A DNA stretch of 11,643 nt from contig JBGFRZ010000085.1 in NCBI GenBank assembly GCA_041694835.1, positions 1-11,643 of the forward strand, written 5' to 3'. Under the pieces are notes generated by a model. The model saw only the letters and a list, made by a program, of their open reading frames with translations, made no database searches and was not told the origin of the DNA. The translations under genes and the position numbers were made by a program. The stretch's first letter is position 1, and each line of letters opens with the position of its first letter. This document shows, one piece after another, positions 243 to 9,762 of the stretch. The stretch comes from Ignavibacteria bacterium. GTDB lineage: Bacteria > Elusimicrobiota > Endomicrobiia > PHAN01.

Positions 243-3200
243 TTAAAATTTTATTTTATCATTATGGGAAGGCCAGTAGTTTTTTATCGGTGTTACATTA
301 ACATTGTTTTTTTTAAGCGCTCTGATTGCGTCAAGAGCGGCAAGAGCCGCGGGGATAGTTGTGATTATTGGAATTTTATTGATAGTCGCATTTGTTCTGA
401 TAATGTATCCGTCGGAAAGAGATGTTTTTTTTCCTGATGGTGTGTTTATGAGCAAAGATATTTTTGAACCCTTTATAAGGTCAACAACATTGGGGCGCCC
501 CTCACTGATTTTTTTTACTATTTTTATTTTAATTTTATTTTTGACAAGATATTTTCCCGTTCCATCCGTTGAGAGAAGTTTAAATCCTAATTTGCTCAAT
601 CCCCTTGCAATAGGTAAAATTTTTTCTCTGTCTGTTTTTTGTACACTTAAAAAAACATTTCCCGATTTAGGAAGCATCGTCCCGGCTGCGAGCTGCGATT
701 TTGCAAAGGCAAGAGCAAAACTCTTGTCAATTCCCATAACTTCACCCGTTGACTTCATCTCCGGTCCCAAAACGGCGTCCGTCCCTAAAAATCTGTTAAA
801 TGGTAAAACGGACTCTTTAACGGCGAAATACGGCAGATTGAGAGGTTGATAGGCTGAGAGATTGATATGCTGGCCGAGCATGCAAGAGACAGCGAGTTTT
901 ACGAGAGGAATTCCAGTCGCTTTTGATATAAATGGAAGTGTCCGTGACGCTCGAGGATTCACTTCAATAACATAAACTTTCTCATCCTTAATCGCATATT
1001 GTATATTGACGGGGCCCAACACTTTGGCCGAGAGTGCGAGAATTTTGGTGTAGTCATTCAGCGACTTCATTACTTGAGGGCTAAAACTTACTGGCGGCAA
1101 AACAGAGGCGCTATCACCCGAATGAATCCCCGCTTCTTCAATGTGTTCCAATATACCACCGATAAAAATATTTTTTCCGTCGCAAACAGCGTCAACATCG
1201 CACTCTTTTGCGTCTTGTAAAAATTTGTCCATAAAGACGGGTTTATTTTCGGATATTTCCGACGACGTTTCAATATATTTTTTCAAAGATGGCTCGTCGT
1301 AGACGATTTCCATAGCTTGCCCGCCAAGCACATAAGACGGACGGACAATTACAGGATAGCCGATATTTGCAGCTATTTTTTTTGCTTCATCATATGTCTT
1401 GGCGCTGCCCCATTGCGGATGAGGCAATTTAAGTTTTTTTAGAAGTTTTCCGAAACGAATTCTATCTTCTACGAGGTCTATATTTTCCGGAGATGTCCCC
1501 AAAACATTCACACCCGCCGCTTTCAGTTGTCTTGCCAAATTCAAAGGCGTCTGTCCGCCGAAGTTTAAAATTACGCCAAAAGGTCTTTCTACATCAACTA
1601 TGTTGAGAACATCTTCGCAGGTGAGTGGTTCAAAATATAATTTATCAGAAACATCATAATCGGTCGAGACCGTCTCGGGATTGCAGTTGACCATTATTGT
1701 TTCAAATCCAAACCCCTTCAACGCTTTAACCGCATGCACGCAACAATAGTCAAATTCTATCCCCTGCCCGATTCTGTTTGGCCCACCACCTAATATCATT
1801 ATTTTTTTGTGGCTCGTGGCTCGTGGCTTGTGGCTCGTATTCTCGCTTTCTTCTTCATAAGTTGAATAAAAATAAGGAGTTTGCGATTCAAATTCACCTG
1901 CACAGGTGTCAACCATTTTATATGATGGCACAATTCCAAATTTTTTTCGCATGTTTCTGATTTCATCTTCATTTTTTCCTGACAGGTAACCGATTTGCTC
2001 ATCAGAAAATCCATACCGCTTCGCTTTTTTAACGAGTTGAGAGATGAGAGGTGAGTTTTTTCTCTTGTCTGACCTCTGACCTCTGACCTCTGTCCTCTGT
2101 CCTCTAAACTCTAAACTAATTTGATTTTCCAACTCTACAATTTCTCTTATTTGTTCAATAAACCACTTGTCTATCTTAGAAATTTCTGCAATTTGAGCGA
2201 CCGATAAACCGAGTTGCAATGCGTATTTTATATTAAAAATCCTATCGCAGTTTGGAACTTTCAGTTTGTATTTAACCAACTCGAGATATGCTTTTTTTTC
2301 GATTGAGTTGTCGGATAATTTTAAGAGACGTTCTATGGTTTTTGTCTGTCCAAATCCATCGGCGCCAAGTCCGTATCTGCCTATTTCCAGACCTCTTAAT
2401 GCTTTTTGGAGCGACTCTTTGAAATTTCTACCCATGGCCATCACTTCTCCGACGGATTTCATTGATACACCTAATGTCTGGTCGGTATCAACGAATTTTT
2501 CAAAAGTAAATCGTGGGATTTTTACTACGACATAATCAATAGCGGGTTCAAAAGACGCCGGAGTTTTTTTCGTGATATCATTTTTTATTTCGTCAAGGTT
2601 ATATCCAACGGCAAGCAAACTCGCAATTTTTGCAATTGGAAATCCTGTGGCTTTTGAGGCGAGTGCAGATGAGCGAGAAACTCTCGGATTCATCTCAATC
2701 ACAACCATTCGCCCGTCGTTTGGATTAACTGCAAATTGTATATTTGAGCCACCGGTGTCAACGCCAATTTCTCTAATGATTTTTATAGACGCATCTCGCA
2801 TTTGTTGGTATTCTGTGTCGGAGAGCGTCTGGGCAGGAGCAACGGTGATTGAATCGCCGGTATGAACACCCATCGGGTCGATATTTTCAATCGGACAAAT
2901 AATTACTACATTGTCAGCTTTATCCCGCATAACTTCTAATTCGTATTCTTTCCATCCAATGACTGATTCTTCGATGAGGACTTTATTGATTGGGCTCATT
3001 GAAAGCCCCCGCGAAACTTTTTCGTCAAATTCTTTTTCCTCAAAGCACAAACTTCCCCCGCCCCCGCCGAGGGTGAAGGAAGGTCTGATGATATTTGGAA
3101 ATCCTATTTTTTTTGCGATTTCTCTCGCTTCGGAGAGTGTTTTAACATGTGCAGATCCAGGCACATCTAAACCCACTCTTTTAACGCTCTTTTTAAAAAG

Positions 3201-3590
3201 TTCTCTATCTTCGGCTTTTTTTATGACATCATAATTGGCGCCGATTAACTCTACTTTGTGTTTTTTTAAGACGCCTTTTTCGTATAACTCGATAGCCAAA
3301 TTTAGTGCGGTTTGTCCGCCGAGAGTGGGCAAGAGCGCATCGGGTTTTTCCTTAGCGATTACTTTTTCGACGAAGTCAAAGGTGAGCGGTTCTATATATG
3401 TTGCCTCCGCGAACTCAGGGTCAGTCATTATGGTTGCCGGGTTGGAGTTGATAAGAATTATTTTAAAACCCTCTTTTTTTAAAGCCCTGCATCCTTGAGT
3501 CCCCGAGTAATCAAATTCGCATGCTTGTCCGATAACGATTGGCCCACTTCCAATGAGCAGTATTTTTTCTATGTCAGTTCTTTTTGGCAT
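243..3590 (-). CDS. carB: Carbamoyl-phosphate synthase large subunit
   Basis: 1115 aa. N-terminus [25 protein letters not shown], motifs GVHTGDS and [18 protein letters not shown], second repeat [15 protein letters not shown] with GIHSGDS and [22 protein letters not shown], and a C-terminal MGS-like domain. Confidence 0.99.
835..866. repeat. Degenerate octamer tandem repeat (AGRTTGAK x4) inside carB
   Basis: AGATTGAG AGGTTGAT AGGCTGAG AGATTGAT; encodes [11 protein letters not shown]. Reverse complement of the unit at 8227-8266. Confidence 0.7.
1809..1838. repeat. Heptamer tandem repeat (GTGGCTC x4) inside carB
   Basis: GTGGCTC GTGGCTC GTGGCTT GTGGCTC GT; encodes [10 protein letters not shown]. 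Confidence 0.9.
2034..2116. repeat. Two adjacent heptamer arrays inside carB
   Basis: GAGTTGA GAGATGA GAGGTGA (2034-2054), then TCTGACC x3, TCTGTCC x2, TCTAAAC x2 (2068-2116); encodes [27 protein letters not shown]. Confidence 0.9.
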
Positions 3591-3655
3591 AATTCGCTTC
3601 GTTCACTTATATTCAACCCCTTAGGAGATTTATGGGACACCACATTAGATAGCAA

Positions 3656-5746
3656 TCATCTAATGGGGTAGACCTTTACTGGTTTTGTTTTGCCTTTTAT
3701 TGCCGTCTCAAAAGGTTCTGATATATCAATCTGGCTTTTCACATACTCATACACATTCTCACCAATGAGTATCTGCTCCGGATGTGCTATTTGTTGTAGC
3801 CGGAATGCAATATTTACAGTATCACCGACGATAGTGTAATCGGCTCTTCTTTCAGAGCCGATATTTCCGGCAACCGCCTCCCCTGTATTTACTGCGATAC
3901 CTGGTTTAAGCACTTGTTTGTTTTGCTCCATTCTTAACTGGTTCAATTTTCTAATCTCAGATTGAATTTTTAATGCACACCGGCATGCTCTTAAATGATG
4001 GTCTGGCTGGTCTAATGGTGCCGAAAATATAGCCATCACGCAATCACCGATAAATTTATCAATAGTGCCTTCGTATTCAAAAATAATATCAACTATCCTG
4101 CTAAAATACTGGTTTAGTGTCTCAAGTACTTCTTCGGGTGGTGCTGATTCTGCATATTTTGTGAACCCGCGCATATCAACAAACATAACAGATACAGTTC
4201 TTTTTTCGCCTTTAAGATAAATAATATCCGGATTTTTCAGTATTTTTTCTACTACCGGTTTCGCAACATAGCGTTTGAATGTTTCCTTTACAAACTCTCG
4301 TTCTTTGAGTCCTTTTACCATTTTATTAAATGCAGTTCCAAGTTGACCGATTTCATCTTTCGTCTTGAAATACACCTTTGCATCTAAATCCATATTTTCT
4401 ACACGACGCATTTCTTTAACTAATGTATAAACCGGCATCAGCAAAACTTTAATCACGAACACTAAAACCATAATTCCAATAGTTGCGATTAAAAGTAGTG
4501 AATATCCTGATGATGCTAAAATATTGACAAGTTGCCATTGTTTCAAGTTATAGTACGAAAAAACAAGAAAGTAGCCATGAACTTTTGTAATTGTCCGGAT
4601 AGGATATATATACGCATTGTATGGAAATATCTCTTTGGTTTGAATAATAAGTTTTACCGTAGATAAAAATTCTTTCAGTGTATTCTGTTTTGGATACAGC
4701 GTCAATGTATAAAATGTTGGTTCAACTCTTGCATATGTCAGTTCATTTATTTCTGATAGACTAATTCTGGTATACAGATTCTTGAGTAACGATTTAAAAG
4801 ATTCCGGATGAGCATTTAACCATACAGTCGTATTTTCAGCAGCACCCAAGGTTAAAGGAACGCCATCACTGCTATATACAATTATATTGGTAACATCAAT
4901 TTTGCGTAATGCAGCAAAATCACTGATACCTTTTGTGTCACGAAACCGAGCGACCATTTTCCAGAAAGTATTTGTTGTGGTTGGTAGTTCTGTTTTCTTT
5001 TCTTTTAACAAACTGTTCAGATGTTCATCGCAATTAACATATAGCAGATTGGCTATTTGTATATCTGTATCATGGAAGATATTTTTTATATTCAAAATTA
5101 GTGTGGAAGACAAAACTATACCGAGTAATAACAACACACTACCAGCGATAATAATAAATTTCGTCAGCAGTCGTATATTTACTCGCATAAGTGCTCTGAT
5201 AAACCAGTTTACAAAAGGTGCGACTGAAACCAAAACCAATAAAGTAATCAGTGCAAAATTAAAAACTAATTTCATCGGTTGAACAGTTTTTATTTTAAGA
5301 ATAGAATTGAAACCACCAAAATGGTCATCAACTTTTTTGGGATTGGTTAGATCTTCAGTCCAGAGATATAGTATTTTTTCTTTCAATTTTTTATCTTCCG
5401 GAACCAATCTGAACTTGTATAAATAATCACCGGGCGGCAATTTAAGTGTTGTAGCATAATTATTCATATCTATCTTTTTTAAGAAATATAAATCTGCAGA
5501 ATCAAGAATATAATCAATATGTTTTGGATTGCCCCATTCGTTAAATGTACCTACGAGTTCTATGGTTTTGATTTTTGTATCAACAGGAATTTTGTATCTA
5601 TCAGCGATTTCTTTGGGTAGTTTACCGTCTGAGAGAGAAAAATAGAAGGTTACAGGTTTTGTATTTTTTAACTCAATAAGATTGAAGATATAATTTCCTG
5701 CAACCAAACATATCACTAACAGAATTGGCGCTATTATTTTTTTCAT
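3656..5746 (-). CDS. Membrane-bound class III adenylate cyclase with N-terminal CBM48/glycogen-binding-like domain, extracytoplasmic sensor region and HAMP domain
   Basis: 696 aa. Cyclase motifs VMFVDMRGFT, IDKFIGDCVMAIF, GIAVNTGEAVAGNIGS and YTIVGDTVNIAFRLQ; HAMP-like PVYTL...DEIGQLGTAFNKMV; four hydrophobic segments; N-terminal VGTFNEW...LPPGDYLYKF...W.ED..NP....D.FGGFNS. Confidence 0.9.
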   Translation of the reverse strand: MKKIIAPILLVICLVAGNYIFNLIELKNTKPVTFYFSLSDGKLPKEIADRYKIPVDTKIKTIELVGTFNEWGNPKHIDYILDSADLYFLKKIDMNNYATTLKLPPGDYLYKFRLVPEDKKLKEKILYLWTEDLTNPKKVDDHFGGFNSILKIKTVQPMKLVFNFALITLLVLVSVAPFVNWFIRALMRVNIRLLTKFIIIAGSVLLLLGIVLSSTLILNIKNIFHDTDIQIANLLYVNCDEHLNSLLKEKKTELPTTTNTFWKMVARFRDTKGISDFAALRKIDVTNIIVYSSDGVPLTLGAAENTTVWLNAHPESFKSLLKNLYTRISLSEINELTYARVEPTFYTLTLYPKQNTLKEFLSTVKLIIQTKEIFPYNAYIYPIRTITKVHGYFLVFSYYNLKQWQLVNILASSGYSLLLIATIGIMVLVFVIKVLLMPVYTLVKEMRRVENMDLDAKVYFKTKDEIGQLGTAFNKMVKGLKEREFVKETFKRYVAKPVVEKILKNPDIIYLKGEKRTVSVMFVDMRGFTKYAESAPPEEVLETLNQYFSRIVDIIFEYEGTIDKFIGDCVMAIFSAPLDQPDHHLRACRCALKIQSEIRKLNQLRMEQNKQVLKPGIAVNTGEAVAGNIGSERRADYTIVGDTVNIAFRLQQIAHPEQILIGENVYEYVKSQIDISEPFETAIKGKTKPVKVYPIR

Positions 5747-5780
5747 AGATTTTGTCTTTGGCAGGATTTTAGTTTTATTT

Positions 5781-5842
5781 AACCACGAATTATAGGAATA
5801 ACACGAAGTTTTTAACTCGCTTAATTAGAACAATTCGTGGTT
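5781..5842. repeat. CACGAA-type inverted-repeat element
   Basis: AACCACGAATT (5781-5791) and AATTCGTGGTT (5832-5842) form a perfect 11-bp inverted repeat with an extra internal ACACGAA; similar termini occur at 9386 and 9762. Confidence 0.75.
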
Positions 5843-5864
5843 TCATATTTTTATCCCGTTAATT

Positions 5865-5918
5865 GTTCGACTGAGCAGTTCGGCTCTGAGCTCAGAGCCC
5901 AATGGCGAATGACGAAGT
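5865..5918. repeat. Perfect 18-bp palindrome within a GTTCGACTGAGC...GACGAAGT element downstream of carA
   Basis: GGCTCTGAGCTCAGAGCC (5882-5899) is its own reverse complement; the flanks TTCGAC and GACGAA pair at 5/6. Confidence 0.75.
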
Positions 5919-5939
5919 TCTGTCAACTTCTTTTTCAGT

Positions 5940-7199
5940 TCATGTTTTTCTATCTATAGCACCCGATTTTATAAGTTTTGCAAATTTTTCAAAAAGGTAT
6001 TTTGTATCGTGTGGACCTGGCGATGCTTCAGGATGAAATTGGACAGAAAATATCGGCAGTTTCTTGTGCTCCATTCCTTCACAGGTTCCATCGTTCAGAT
6101 TTATATGTGTCACAACAAAATCGCTGTTATTTTCAATCTCCCATCTATTATCTCCTATCTGTCTCGTTCTAACCGCAAAATTATGGTTTTCTGCCGCAAT
6201 TTCCACTCGTCCCGTTATTAGATTTTTTATCGGCTGATTGGAGCCATGATGACCGAATTTCAGTTTATAGGTTTTTCCACCACAAGCAAGTGCAATGATT
6301 TGATGCCCAAGACAAATTCCAAAGACGGGTAAACGGTAGAAGGTAGAAGGTAGATGATAAATCAGTTCCTTTACGGTTTCTATGGCGTAGGGAATGCCTT
6401 CAGGGTCGCCGGGTCCGTTAGAAAGCATTATGCCTTTTGGTTTTAGTGCTAAAATTTTTTCAAAAGATGTATTTGCAGGAACAACTGCGGGAGACAATCC
6501 TACAGATGCAAGGGAGCGTAAAATATTCGTTTTGACTCCGCAATCGATTACTGCGACACGATGCTGGTGGCTGGTGCCCGATAGCTGGTTGCTTGCGAAT
6601 GATGAATAGTGGTTGGTAACTTGTGACCTGTGCTCTTGTGCTCTTGTGCTCTTGTGTTCTTGTGCCTTGTGCCTTGTGCACTCATATACATTTGAACAAG
6701 TGACTTCTTTGACCAAGTCCCTGCCGACGATACCGGGCACCGCTTTCATTTTGGCGAGCAGTAATTTTTTGTCAAAATTAGTTTCTTCGCGATATGACGA
6801 GATAATTCCTTTCATAGAACCCTTTTCGCGAATTTTTTTCACAATCGCTCTCGTGTCAACGCTTTCAATGGCGACGATTTTATTTTCTTTTAAGAAATCA
6901 GCGAGTGATTTTTTTGCGCGCCAATTAGAATAGACTTTAGAGTATTCACGGACGATAAACCCGGAAAGATGCGGTTTGACCGACTCAAAATCATCAAAAT
7001 TAATTCCATAATTCCCAATATGCGGATATGTCATCGTAACAATCTGTCCTTTATACGATGGGTCGGTCAATATCTCTTGATAGCCCGTCATTGAAGTATT
7101 GAACACCACCTCGCCGACCGCCTCCCCGTCGGCGCCGAACGACTCTCCCAGAAAAGTCGTTTCATCTTCAAGTATAATAACTGCCTTACTTTTAATCAT
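5940..7199 (-). CDS. carA: Carbamoyl-phosphate synthase small (glutaminase) subunit
   Basis: Motifs GEVVFNTSMTGYQEILTDPSY.GQ, TYPHIGNYG, LSNGPGDP, FGICLGHQ (catalytic Cys) and VQFHPEA.PGP (His/Glu). Start moved from 7271 to ATG 7199 (ATG 7208 also possible), because family similarity starts at KAVIILED and the upstream extension is repeat-derived. Confidence 0.98.
   Translation of the reverse strand: MIKSKAVIILEDETTFLGESFGADGEAVGEVVFNTSMTGYQEILTDPSYKGQIVTMTYPHIGNYGINFDDFESVKPHLSGFIVREYSKVYSNWRAKKSLADFLKENKIVAIESVDTRAIVKKIREKGSMKGIISSYREETNFDKKLLLAKMKAVPGIVGRDLVKEVTCSNVYECTRHKAQEHKSTRAQEHRSQVTNHYSSFASNQLSGTSHQHRVAVIDCGVKTNILRSLASVGLSPAVVPANTSFEKILALKPKGIMLSNGPGDPEGIPYAIETVKELIYHLPSTFYRLPVFGICLGHQIIALACGGKTYKLKFGHHGSNQPIKNLITGRVEIAAENHNFAVRTRQIGDNRWEIENNSDFVVTHINLNDGTCEGMEHKKLPIFSVQFHPEASPGPHDTKYLFEKFAKLIKSGAIDRKT
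6328..6362. repeat. Heptamer tandem repeat (GGTAGAA-like x5) inside carA
   Basis: GGTAAAC GGTAGAA GGTAGAA GGTAGAT GATAAAT; encodes IYHLPSTFYRLP. Confidence 0.85.
6563..6679. repeat. Composite heptamer/octamer array inside carA
   Basis: GCTGGTG GCTGGTG CCCGATA GCTGGTT (6563-6590); TAGTGGT TGGTAAC TTGTGAC CTGTGCT (6607-6634); CTTGTGCT x2 plus CTTGTGTT (6635-6658); CTTGTGC x3 (6659-6679). Confidence 0.9.
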
Positions 7200-7230
7200 A
7201 GTGTTCATCGGTTGGGACGATTTGTGCGGG

Positions 7231-7364
7231 TGGCAATCCCCGACAAAGACATCAAGGACATGCCGCGCCACTACATTGCAGATTTATATCCGCCGCTACA
7301 TACCGATAAACCCCGCCATAACGGGGCAGGTCGGCAACTACAACTCCCCTCTATCAAGATGGGA
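7231..7364. repeat. Cluster of GTAG-type REP-like hairpins upstream of carA
   Basis: Three units end in CTACA (7271-7275, 7296-7300, 7338-7342; TGTAG on the minus strand), each next to an imperfect palindrome. A further hairpin TCCCCTCT/AGATGGGA lies at 7345-7364. Confidence 0.75.
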
Positions 7365-8274: not shown

Positions 8275-8727
8275 TTACAGAATCTCTTGAATCAATTCTT
8301 TCACCTTGTCTTTAATGTCATCTCTGACTTTTCTGAAAAAATCCAAATTTTTATCTTTCGGGTCTTCTATATTCCACTCAATGTGTTTATTGGCCGGCAC
8401 AAAGGGACATGTGTCCTTACAGCCCATTGATATTACATAATCAAATTTTCTTAAAGGAAGTTGAGCAAATCCCTTCGAATTGGCAGATGAAATATCTATG
8501 CCTTCTTCCCGCATTACTTTTATCGCCATTGGATTTACCCCGTTAGAAACCCGATGTGATTTAGCGTCGATCGGGATATTTCTAACAGGGTTAACTTTCC
8601 CGGATGGCTTTGAACCAGCGCTATAAGCGTCTATGAGTCCTTCGCCAAAAAAGTTGGCAAACCCCTCCGCCATTTGGCTTCTGCAAGAATTTTCCACACA
8701 CACAAATAAAATCTTTTTTTTATACAC
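8275..8727 (-). CDS. arsC: Arsenate reductase ArsC, LMW protein-tyrosine-phosphatase family
   Basis: P-loop ILFVCVENSCRSQMAEG, SAGS.P, MGC...CPFVP Cys pair and W.IEDP. The GTG start overlaps the aquaporin stop. Carries a 19-aa palindrome-derived insertion. Confidence 0.85.
   Translation of the reverse strand: MYKKKILFVCVENSCRSQMAEGFANFFGEGLIDAYSAGSKPSGKVNPVRNIPIDAKSHRVSNGVNPMAIKVMREEGIDISSANSKGFAQLPLRKFDYVISMGCKDTCPFVPANKHIEWNIEDPKDKNLDFFRKVRDDIKDKVKELIQEIL
8534..8594. repeat. Palindromic miniature element inserted in-frame in arsC
   Basis: TTTACCCCGTTAGAAA (8534-8549) and TTTCTAACAGGGTTAA (8579-8594) form a 14/16 inverted repeat; inner stem CCCGAT (8550-8555) / ATCGGG (8570-8575). Confidence 0.88.
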
Positions 8728-9367
8728 AGCAATTATTCCTCGTCGCCCTGCAAGTAGTAATTGCTAAAATTGCGCCTACAAATGGAGCGATTAAATAAAT
8801 CCAAAGTTGTTCTAAATGTCCGGAAATTAAAGCGGGAGCAAGTGACCTGGCAGGATTCATTGAGCCGCCGGTAATAGGTCCGGCAAATAGCGCTCCAATC
8901 CCAACTGTAGCTCCAACAGCAATCCCAGCCACAATGCTTTTTTCTCTGGGCAGGGCAGATGCCCTAATAATAACAAACATTAGCAAAAACGTTAATATAA
9001 TTTCGATGCCGAACGCCTTTGAAGTGGAGATGGCTGGAATTGTAGAGCCCAAAGTAGTATGCGACGGAAACAAGAGTTTTAATGATAACGAGGCAAGCAT
9101 TGCGCCCGATATTTGACTAATAATGTAGGGGAGCAACGTTTTGCCCGGCAGACGTTTCGCTAACCAAAAACCAAATGTCACCGCTGGATTAATATGCGCG
9201 CCTGAAATGTTTCCCGTGGAATAAATTACAGCGCTTACGACCAGTCCAAATACAGTCGCAATGTATACTTGATTGACTTTCCCTGTAAAATCATTGATTA
9301 TAATTGCTCCTGTACCTGCCAAAACCAATACAAATGTTCCTATAAATTCACAGATGTATTTTCTCAT
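8720..9367 (-). CDS. MIP-family channel (aquaporin/aquaglyceroporin), probably an arsenite channel
   Basis: 215 aa; EFIGTF, ISGAHINPAVT, GGSMNPARS; six hydrophobic segments. Substrate is inferred only from the coupling to arsC. Confidence 0.95.
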   Translation of the reverse strand: MRKYICEFIGTFVLVLAGTGAIIINDFTGKVNQVYIATVFGLVVSAVIYSTGNISGAHINPAVTFGFWLAKRLPGKTLLPYIISQISGAMLASLSLKLLFPSHTTLGSTIPAISTSKAFGIEIILTFLLMFVIIRASALPREKSIVAGIAVGATVGIGALFAGPITGGSMNPARSLAPALISGHLEQLWIYLIAPFVGAILAITTCRATRNNCCV

Positions 9368-9385: not shown

Positions 9386-9762
9386 TTTGCCACGAAAGTA
9401 CGAAAATCAGAAAGCATGAAGTAAATAAATTAAGAAATTGAAAAATTTTAAACCCGGACGCAGATTTTCGCAGATGCGACACAGATTGTCGCAGATATTG
9501 TCGTGAGCATCTGCGTTCATCTGTTTTGCTTCTGCGCGTATCTGCGTTAAAAAACTAACTTTGCAGAGCAGTAGTATGCAGTATGTTTGTAACATAAATA
9601 ATCGCGATTTCAAAAATTTTAAATCCGGACGCAGATTTTCACAGATGCGACGCAGATTGTCGCAGATATTGTCGTGAGCATCTGCGTTCATCTGTTTTGC
9701 TTCTGCGTGTATCTGCGTTAAATAAAAAAATTTTATTCATGATTTAGTGTTTTCGTGGTAAA
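9386..9762. repeat. Composite element: CACGAA-type terminal inverted repeats enclosing two 111-nt direct repeats of a CGCAGAT hairpin element
   Basis: Outer TTTGCCACGAAA (9386-9397) and TTTCGTGGTAAA (9751-9762) pair at 11/12. Inner copies 9441-9551 and 9612-9722 differ at 4 positions and are separated by 60 nt. Confidence 0.92.

Follow-up and report, generated by a model that had tools for sequence, protein, structure and literature searches.

The window analysed here, 11,643 nucleotides in length, is the whole of contig JBGFRZ010000085.1 (C51) of a 1.9-Mb, 97% complete genome placed in the Elusimicrobiota (assembly GCA_041694835.1; G000), and carries a gene for a 696-amino-acid (aa) membrane receptor adenylate cyclase. 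Sequence comparison and structure modelling make it reasonably likely that this protein is a one-component periplasmic receptor for maltodextrins or other alpha-glucans that would control cyclic AMP (cAMP). Its sensory part comprises a carbohydrate-binding module (CBM) of the CBM48/AMPK-beta type held between two transmembrane (TM) helices, followed by a second domain between two further helices. This input module of about 435 aa belongs to a sensory module family that is real and apparently undescribed. By sequence, the family is mobile across six kinds of output domain, and its members are probably receptors for starch fragments.

The family was collected by a phmmer search with aa 1–439 against 1.84 billion representative sequences, which returned 87 hits at E ≤ 0.001. 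Sorting by hydropathy, with helices near aa 10, 160, 195 and 410 as the layout criterion, separated 67 hits with the module layout, whole or as a fragment, from 20 unrelated CBM48 proteins. Among the module-bearing hits, 61 were scanned with Pfam (P0003, P0028 and four short fragments were left out). Full-length homologues of the 696-aa protein number four, with identities of 63–76% across aa 20–235, and the closest named protein belongs to an Elusimicrobiota metagenome-assembled genome.

The four hydrophobic helices recur throughout the module family, and their arrangement, together with the charge of the flanking segments, defines the predicted topology (Table 1). The C-terminus is placed inside the cell since the HAMP and cyclase domains fix it there, the loop between TM2 and TM3 carries a net positive charge in all 61 aligned rows (mean +3.9), and the N-terminal stretch does so in 59 of the 61; therefore, both the CBM and the second domain are predicted to lie outside the cytoplasm, with the HAMP-cyclase portion within it. 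The phyla concerned are diderm, so that the outside of the inner membrane is the periplasm. A reading made earlier from the sequence alone had described the same hydrophobic segments and basic loop (aa 184–196) and had put both sensory regions outside the cytoplasm, which hydropathy and the positive-inside bias bear out. A CBM facing the cytoplasm, where it would read the cell's own glycogen store, appears very improbable. The topology is a predicted one, and glgC lies four genes from one PP2C-type locus, but the fixed C-terminus, the family-wide recurrence of four helices and the basic loop and N-terminus all oppose such an arrangement, as does the model, which contains two separate helices at aa 156–188 and 193–238.

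Table 1. Positions of the receptor gene, its predicted domains and residues, and its neighbours in the window
Feature	Position	Strand	Basis
carB, downstream neighbour	243..3590	minus	Pfam CPSase_L; 69% identical to G010 carB
Membrane receptor adenylate cyclase gene (P0001), 696 aa	3656..5746	minus	Pfam, relatives
Class III adenylate cyclase domain, aa 515–693	3668..4204	minus	Pfam Guanylate_cyc, E 4e-26
HAMP, about aa 437–485	4292..4438	minus	Pfam, aa 441–481, E 1.5e-7
TM4, aa 410–436 (hydrophobic from about 410/417)	4439..4519	minus	Hydropathy, model
Second periplasmic domain, PAS/Cache-like fold (unconfirmed), aa 219–409	4520..5092	minus	Structural matches; without Pfam family
TM3, aa 197–218 (hydrophobic from about 193)	5093..5158	minus	Hydropathy; model helix 193–238
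Short basic cytoplasmic loop, aa 184–196	5159..5197	minus	Charge across 61 rows
TM2, aa 161–183	5198..5266	minus	Hydropathy; model helix 156–188
CBM48/AMPK-beta-type glucan-binding domain (predicted), aa 29–153	5288..5662	minus	Profile, Foldseek, VIA
F143-G-G-F-N147, equivalent of AMPK-beta1 L146 ... N150	5306..5320	minus	Profile alignment
W129, equivalent of AMPK-beta1 W133	5360..5362	minus	W in 61/61 rows
K111, equivalent of AMPK-beta1 K126	5414..5416	minus	K in 60/61 rows
W71, equivalent of AMPK-beta1 W100	5534..5536	minus	W in 61/61 rows
TM1/signal anchor, aa 4–22, N-terminus inside	5681..5737	minus	Hydropathy; model helix 2–28
carA, upstream neighbour	5940..7271	minus	Pfam CPSase_sm_chain

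The identity of the first domain as a CBM48/AMPK-beta-type module is confirmed by the family profile and the alignment-based model. It depends on the relatives because the receptor taken singly yields little: the Pfam model AMPK1_CBM aligns with aa 60–112 at E 0.017 and 15.7 bits, below its gathering cut-off of 26.8, a phmmer search of the PDB with the single sequence found no match, and an alignment-free model was poor (predicted local distance difference test, pLDDT, 56.7) and found no Foldseek match at E ≤ 0.001. A profile of 61 homologues, by comparison with these single-sequence searches, matches the CBM of rat AMPK-beta1 (1z0n) at E 1e-8, and AMPK1_CBM is found at E ≤ 1e-4 in 23 of the 61 scanned relatives, with 11 reaching or exceeding the cut-off. 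In the alignment-based AlphaFold2 model of aa 1–490 (pLDDT 92.3; predicted template modelling score, pTM, 0.83), the domain folds into an E-set beta-sandwich that superposes on the AMPK-beta CBM; the top Foldseek matches of the model are a WalK model and AMPK-beta chains (the latter at E 6e-5 to 1e-3), and structural comparison using VIA aligns it with 1z0n at Z 10.0 and a root-mean-square deviation (rmsd) of 1.9 Å, with 79 of its 80 residues aligned. The CBMs of amylases and the N-domains of Fes and feruloyl esterases also align with the model (VIA, Z 8–9.4), and the CBM of the receptor family carries two inserts of its own. The sequence-only reading had recognised such a domain at aa 31–152, which correspond exactly to window positions 5656..5291 within the open reading frame (ORF) 5746..3656, and the motifs it quoted are all present, namely PVTF (31–34), LVGTFNEW (64–71), LKLPPGDYLYKF (101–112) and WTEDLTNPKKVDDHFGGFNSIL (129–150). 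A chance motif match was rejected on the family and structure evidence.

The residues expected to contact glucan are retained to a high degree. For rat AMPK-beta1, PMC2642990 names W100, K126, W133, L146 and T148 as binding residues, with W100 and W133 stacking against the sugar, and describes inhibition of AMPK by glucan binding at W100/W133, which provides a precedent for a CBM of this type that regulates and does not merely anchor. In the profile alignment, W71, K111, W129, F143, G145 and N147 of the receptor fall on W100, K126, W133, L146, T148 and N150, respectively, such that both tryptophans and the lysine are identical, Phe replaces L146 and Gly145 deviates from T148. In addition to the residues counted in Table 1, Phe or Tyr occupies position 143 in 57 of 61 rows, N147 is present in 60 and G145 in 55, G66 is invariant, and the W/K/W/[FYL]/N set is intact as a whole in 56. 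Twelve columns of the CBM are conserved at 90% or above, compared with one in the second domain; computation thereby shows conservation within the input module to be highest at the putative glucan-binding residues.

The opposite end of the protein is predicted to be a functional enzyme. In class III cyclases the roles of the active-site residues are established, including those of a Lys and a Thr that select adenine. The receptor aligns with Cya2 (2w01), a phytochrome-cyclase fusion (6fht) and CyaB (3r5g) at the matching residues, with D524 and D568 as metal ligands, K564 and T638 for adenine, N645 and R649 for the transition state, and K684. The cyclase homology domain matches PF00211 above its cut-off and 2w01 at E 6e-39, and the D, K, D, N and R catalytic residues are preserved in all nine cyclase-type members. 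The Lys and Thr, together with the full catalytic set, indicate a complete class IIIb adenylate cyclase, and the preceding region of the model matches the Af1503 HAMP domain (Z 8.4–8.8), in agreement with the HAMP-adenylate cyclase fusion proposed from the sequence.

The second periplasmic domain is less readily classified. It aligns with the sensor domains of KinD and vpHK1S (Z 7.8 over aa 198–427), and the WalK model matches a longer stretch that includes the TM and HAMP parts (VIA, Z 10.1, rmsd 5.2, aa 185–490). Its neighbours in the Atlas are sCache/CHASE clusters at 0.76–0.78, which we take as a lead only. Among the Pfam Cache and CHASE models, no Cache model matches any of ten second-domain rows at E ≤ 1, and a sequence comparison with the PDB found no meaningful match. 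The PAS/Cache-like fold assigned on the basis of these structural matches is unconfirmed. This domain is central to an alternative that we consider distinctly less probable, yet the most serious of those weighed, in which the CBM would be a glucan tether or co-receptor that concentrates sugar or docks to glucan-loaded periplasmic proteins, and the true signal, whether a small sugar, a different metabolite or a solute-binding protein, would be recognised by the Cache-like domain, which would drive TM4 and HAMP in the manner of ordinary Cache receptors. Indeed, TM3-Cache-TM4-HAMP on its own amounts to a full receptor layout, as the WalK match illustrates; variability is much higher in the second domain than in the CBM, a pattern that paralogues with differing ligands would be expected to show (one genome, G302, has eight copies); and the presence of two CBMs in four relatives of the hydropathy-sorted set suggests avidity. 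On the other hand, the CBM sits on short linkers between two helices in the model, unlike a flexible anchor, the single highly conserved column of the second domain provides no signature of a shared pocket, and the whole module is retained in LuxR variants that lack HAMP. That allosteric sensing across the inner membrane is performed by the AMPK-beta-type CBM48 itself, within an undescribed receptor family whose module was recombined repeatedly and which forms starch-sensing networks of up to eight members in uncultured spirochaetes, is a broader proposal that we judge evenly balanced.

An output domain follows the module in 60 of the 61 scanned relatives: histidine kinases or hybrids (18), PP2C/SpoIIE phosphatases (18), LuxR helix-turn-helix domains (11), GGDEF-EAL (5), GGDEF (4) and cyclases (4), with the one other relative terminating after TM4. 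On a module tree built by a quick IQ-TREE method from 61 rows, excluding two-CBM and extra-helix variants, the output labels require 15 changes, compared with a minimum of 6 and a shuffled mean of 37.8, and the cyclase P0060 lies among kinases and phosphatases in a group with support of 99. The module therefore appears to have recombined several times, with the labels still clustered. Word-indexed searches with alignments, which were swamped, found no additional module member. Ten of the 11 LuxR fusions have no HAMP match (P0019, P0034, P0045, P0057, P0065, P0068, P0070, P0071, P0072 and P0090, proteins of about 500 aa; loci L014, L057, L058 and L083), and the remaining one carries HAMP-PAS. 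The ten without HAMP are predicted membrane-tethered transcription factors, several of which adjoin starch-binding or pullulanase genes. The searches also encountered CBM48 in other membrane or periplasmic architectures, namely P0012, a six-helix protein that has two CBMs but lacks an output domain, and a 779-aa protein with tetratricopeptide repeats (TPR) and three CBM48 repeats, flanked by a response regulator and a histidine kinase (L065–L067).

The link to alpha-glucans comes from the genes that surround the relatives. When all fetched loci were placed in 16 groups by shared neighbours and selected neighbours were scanned, nine groups contained at least one locus with a gene for a starch-acting or starch-binding protein no more than three genes away. 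In the cyclase type, a few bases separate the end of a GH13 gene from the downstream cyclase P0003 (68–72% identical) at two metagenome loci, and G010 has the order GH13-carA-cyclase-adh-cupin-carB, with GH13 two genes upstream of the cyclase. In G010 and G026 (L019, L020), the two-CBM kinase type is flanked by the genes for a GH13 amylase and MalK. Linked PP2C types follow GH13 (L013), stand near a TPR-CBM48 protein (three of six loci) or follow a small CBM48 protein (L081, L084), a kinase-GGDEF type lies near GH13 (L055), and LuxR types accompany a CBM20 esterase (L057), a CBM21 protein (one of two loci) or a pullulanase (L083). For the genome richest in GH13 (67 GH13 and CBM matches, with about 3,500 genes assumed), chance would give a rough ceiling of about 11% per locus, a figure that is not a formal test. 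Among the seven groups outside these nine, one has a pullulanase four to six genes away at all three loci scanned and two are cut by contig ends. The proposal of an alpha-glucan or maltodextrin receptor made from the sequence thus gains support from the starch-related neighbours of the relatives, and is refined in that the site of sensing would be the periplasm and the cyclase is one of six outputs.

Those seven groups lend some weight to a further explanation, in which the CBM48 fold would recognise a protein partner, or a glycan that the cell itself makes for its periplasm or envelope, and report on the state of the envelope. A polysaccharide deacetylase also adjoins one LuxR type, and CBM48-like domains occur on non-amylolytic esterases. 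We nevertheless consider this explanation unlikely, given that both stacking tryptophans, the Lys and the Asn are near-invariant, that glycogen-binding CBMs are the best structural matches, and that starch-gene neighbours repeat in separate lineages and output types.

The distribution of the module is patchy and uncommon. It was mapped with a module-only profile of 12 rows at E ≤ 1e-18, where several rows come from the genomes searched and match by construction; the narrower patterns used in a scan of genome contigs miss the cyclase subgroup. The module occurs in Elusimicrobiota, spirochaetes and gammaproteobacteria. It was found in 2 of 350 other genomes of the window's phylum, in 7 of 43 genomes in the class of G302 (labelled Brevinematales) and 13 of 351 in that phylum, and in 3 of 201 genomes in the family of G304 (labelled Rheinheimera) and 8 of 301 in its order. 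Copy number reaches a maximum of eight in G302, with five in G303. Within the class of G302, the seven module-bearing genomes have at least 26–35 GH13 matches, as against 0–25 in the 36 others. The uncultured spirochaetes of this class (G301–G303, G317–G320) include genomes with 53 (G302), 48 (G303) and 36 (G301) GH13 matches, which suggests that they are starch specialists.

Several observations weigh against an alpha-glucan receptor. The cyclase gene lies between carA and carB in a window that holds no starch gene, and 7 of the 16 locus groups lack one within three genes. The actual sensor could be the Cache-like domain, Gly stands where AMPK has T148, which PMC2642990 lists among the binding residues, and CBM48-like folds are also found on Fes and feruloyl esterases (Z 8.1–8.9). 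With respect to genome content, the GH13-rich module-bearing genomes probably form one clade, four genomes with 19–25 GH13 matches have no module, and two same-family genomes that have no module contain 11 and 8 GH13 matches, compared with only 6 in G000. Finally, the alpha-glucan operons of contig C62 in G000 have no upstream CRP-type box at up to one mismatch.

Under the favoured reading as an alpha-glucan receptor, maltodextrins or branched limit dextrins entering the periplasm would bind the W71/W129 cradle, and binding would shift the TM1/TM2 hairpin or the Cache-like domain. This shift would in turn move TM4 and HAMP in the usual dimer and thereby alter cAMP output, either up or down. 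The location in a diderm periplasm makes an imported maltodextrin or limit dextrin a more likely ligand than a starch granule. As a weaker step, cAMP may work through the sole CRP-like protein of the genome on a type IV pilin-like gene and secreted proteins, not on the amylase operon, so that the output may be attachment behaviour. In other bacteria the same input module would drive phosphorelays, PP2C phosphatases, cyclic di-GMP enzymes or a fused LuxR DNA-binding domain.

Candidate targets of cAMP are present in G000, which encodes two proteins with cyclic nucleotide-binding domains, an MscS-like channel and the CRP-like protein (L089:1168–1890). Perfect TGTGA-N6-TCACA boxes occur five times (C32:3488, C45:7853, and C65:23441, 30406 and 30527), compared with 0.87 expected, have similar spacers and are mostly intergenic, and a one-mismatch box is located at C42:7278. 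Genes for a CHASE2 protein, a FecR-domain protein and large secreted proteins follow the boxes. A near-perfect box stands before a type IV pilin-like gene; at the equivalent position in G125 the box is perfect. The boxes represent a candidate cAMP-CRP regulon; Rex was rejected as their owner, as it was not found in G000. A link from glucan through cAMP to pili is offered as a hypothesis only. A second cyclase, of the CHASE2 type (C57; L003:5755–9064), lies directly after the MscS-like channel gene. A scan for promoters and terminators flanking the receptor gene performed no better than chance.

The gene may have been acquired by this genome. Its GC content of 0.341 is within the lowest 3% of 916 ORFs, its module shares 78% identity with the one in G010, which belongs to another class, and the order carA-cyclase-carB is common to the window (243–7271) and to G010 (C25, L018). 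Furthermore, a search with this carB as the query found no carB in two same-family genomes. Together these features suggest transfer of the whole carA-cyclase-carB block, which would explain the position of the gene and the loss of its amylase neighbour. A mis-binned contig was rejected, since five of six genome-typical repeat words occur in C51, though by tetranucleotide profile the contig comes 22nd of 24.

ORFs throughout the genome contain recurring low-complexity repeat inserts and N-terminal extensions, with one 10-base word present 163 times on 52 contigs; examples are found in carA (6590–6670), carB (about aa 495–515), positions 9407–9691 and many ORFs of C62. The 94-aa ORF at 9407–9691 consists of two copies of a repeat and may not represent a gene. 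Elsewhere in the window (8275–9367), an LMWP/ArsC-type gene and an aquaporin (MIP) gene lie between pstB and phoU, possibly an arsenic-resistance pair within a phosphate operon. In favour of the alpha-glucan reading, G000 has a full locus for alpha-glucan uptake and utilisation on C62 (22.8–42.0 kb; L001), which encodes sugar ABC permeases, a binding protein, two GH13 enzymes and a GH31 enzyme, CBM48 proteins including a secreted one with three repeats, and three proteins without Pfam hits, possibly located in the outer membrane. A locus in G026 resembles it but holds a two-CBM sensor kinase that the G000 copy lacks.

Comparison with known systems places the receptor apart from each of them. 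It shares with the AMPK beta CBM (1z0n, 4yef; PMC2642990) the fold, the equivalents of W100, K126, W133 and N150, and the placement of CBM48 on a signalling protein. This contrasts with AMPK itself, a soluble cytoplasmic eukaryotic kinase that reads glycogen, in that the receptor CBM lies between two membrane helices on the periplasmic side of a bacterial membrane, carries two inserts, replaces L146 by Phe and T148 by Gly, and would relay its signal through the membrane. The 7TMR-DISM proteins RetS and LadS (PMC7695008) likewise carry an outward domain of a carbohydrate-binding type on a membrane module reused with diverse outputs; the receptor differs in having four helices instead of seven, CBM48 and a Cache-like domain instead of DISMED2, and coupling through HAMP, and no module-bearing protein scanned has a 7TM-DISM Pfam match. 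RsgI of Clostridium thermocellum, as described in PMC10328401, has an extracytoplasmic CBM proposed to sense polysaccharide and control degradation genes, with several paralogues per genome. However, RsgI is a single-pass anti-sigma factor of a monoderm that works through proteolysis, with CBM3b, CBM42, PA14 or GH10 carried at the tip of a linker that crosses the wall, whereas the receptor is proposed to signal by conformation to six enzyme or DNA-binding outputs. Its architecture and neighbours differ from the RsgI pattern of a cytoplasmic anti-sigma domain, a single TM helix, a C-terminal CBM and a sigma-I gene. With Cache/PAS-HAMP cyclases and kinases (CyaB, Cya2, WalK, KinD) the receptor has in common the TM-PAS/Cache-like-TM-HAMP-output core and the full class III set, to which TM1-CBM48-TM2 is added at the N-terminus, and its second domain has no Pfam Cache match. 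No description of a CBM48 membrane receptor was found in the literature searched, which took in neither supplementary files nor domain-architecture databases and lacked most subscription journals, and none is given in the available part of a CBM review (PMC13003330). This agrees with the sequence-only reading, which knew of no characterised protein of this architecture.

If correct, these findings would extend the catalogue of bacterial signalling by a new family of sensory inputs. The family has been missed by standard annotation because its CBM falls mostly under the Pfam cut-off and no NCBIfam model exists for it (12 module rows gave no match at E ≤ 0.01). The CBM48 domain, familiar as an appendage of enzymes and as the glycogen sensor of AMPK, would then signal across a membrane, in what would be a bacterial counterpart of AMPK glycogen sensing, and the LuxR versions would represent an unusual four-helix membrane-tethered transcription factor. 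The module may also be usable as a portable glucan input for biosensors, with the cyclase version offering an easy readout by cya complementation. For the bacteria themselves, the receptor would provide a direct way into how diderms detect the breakdown products of starch.

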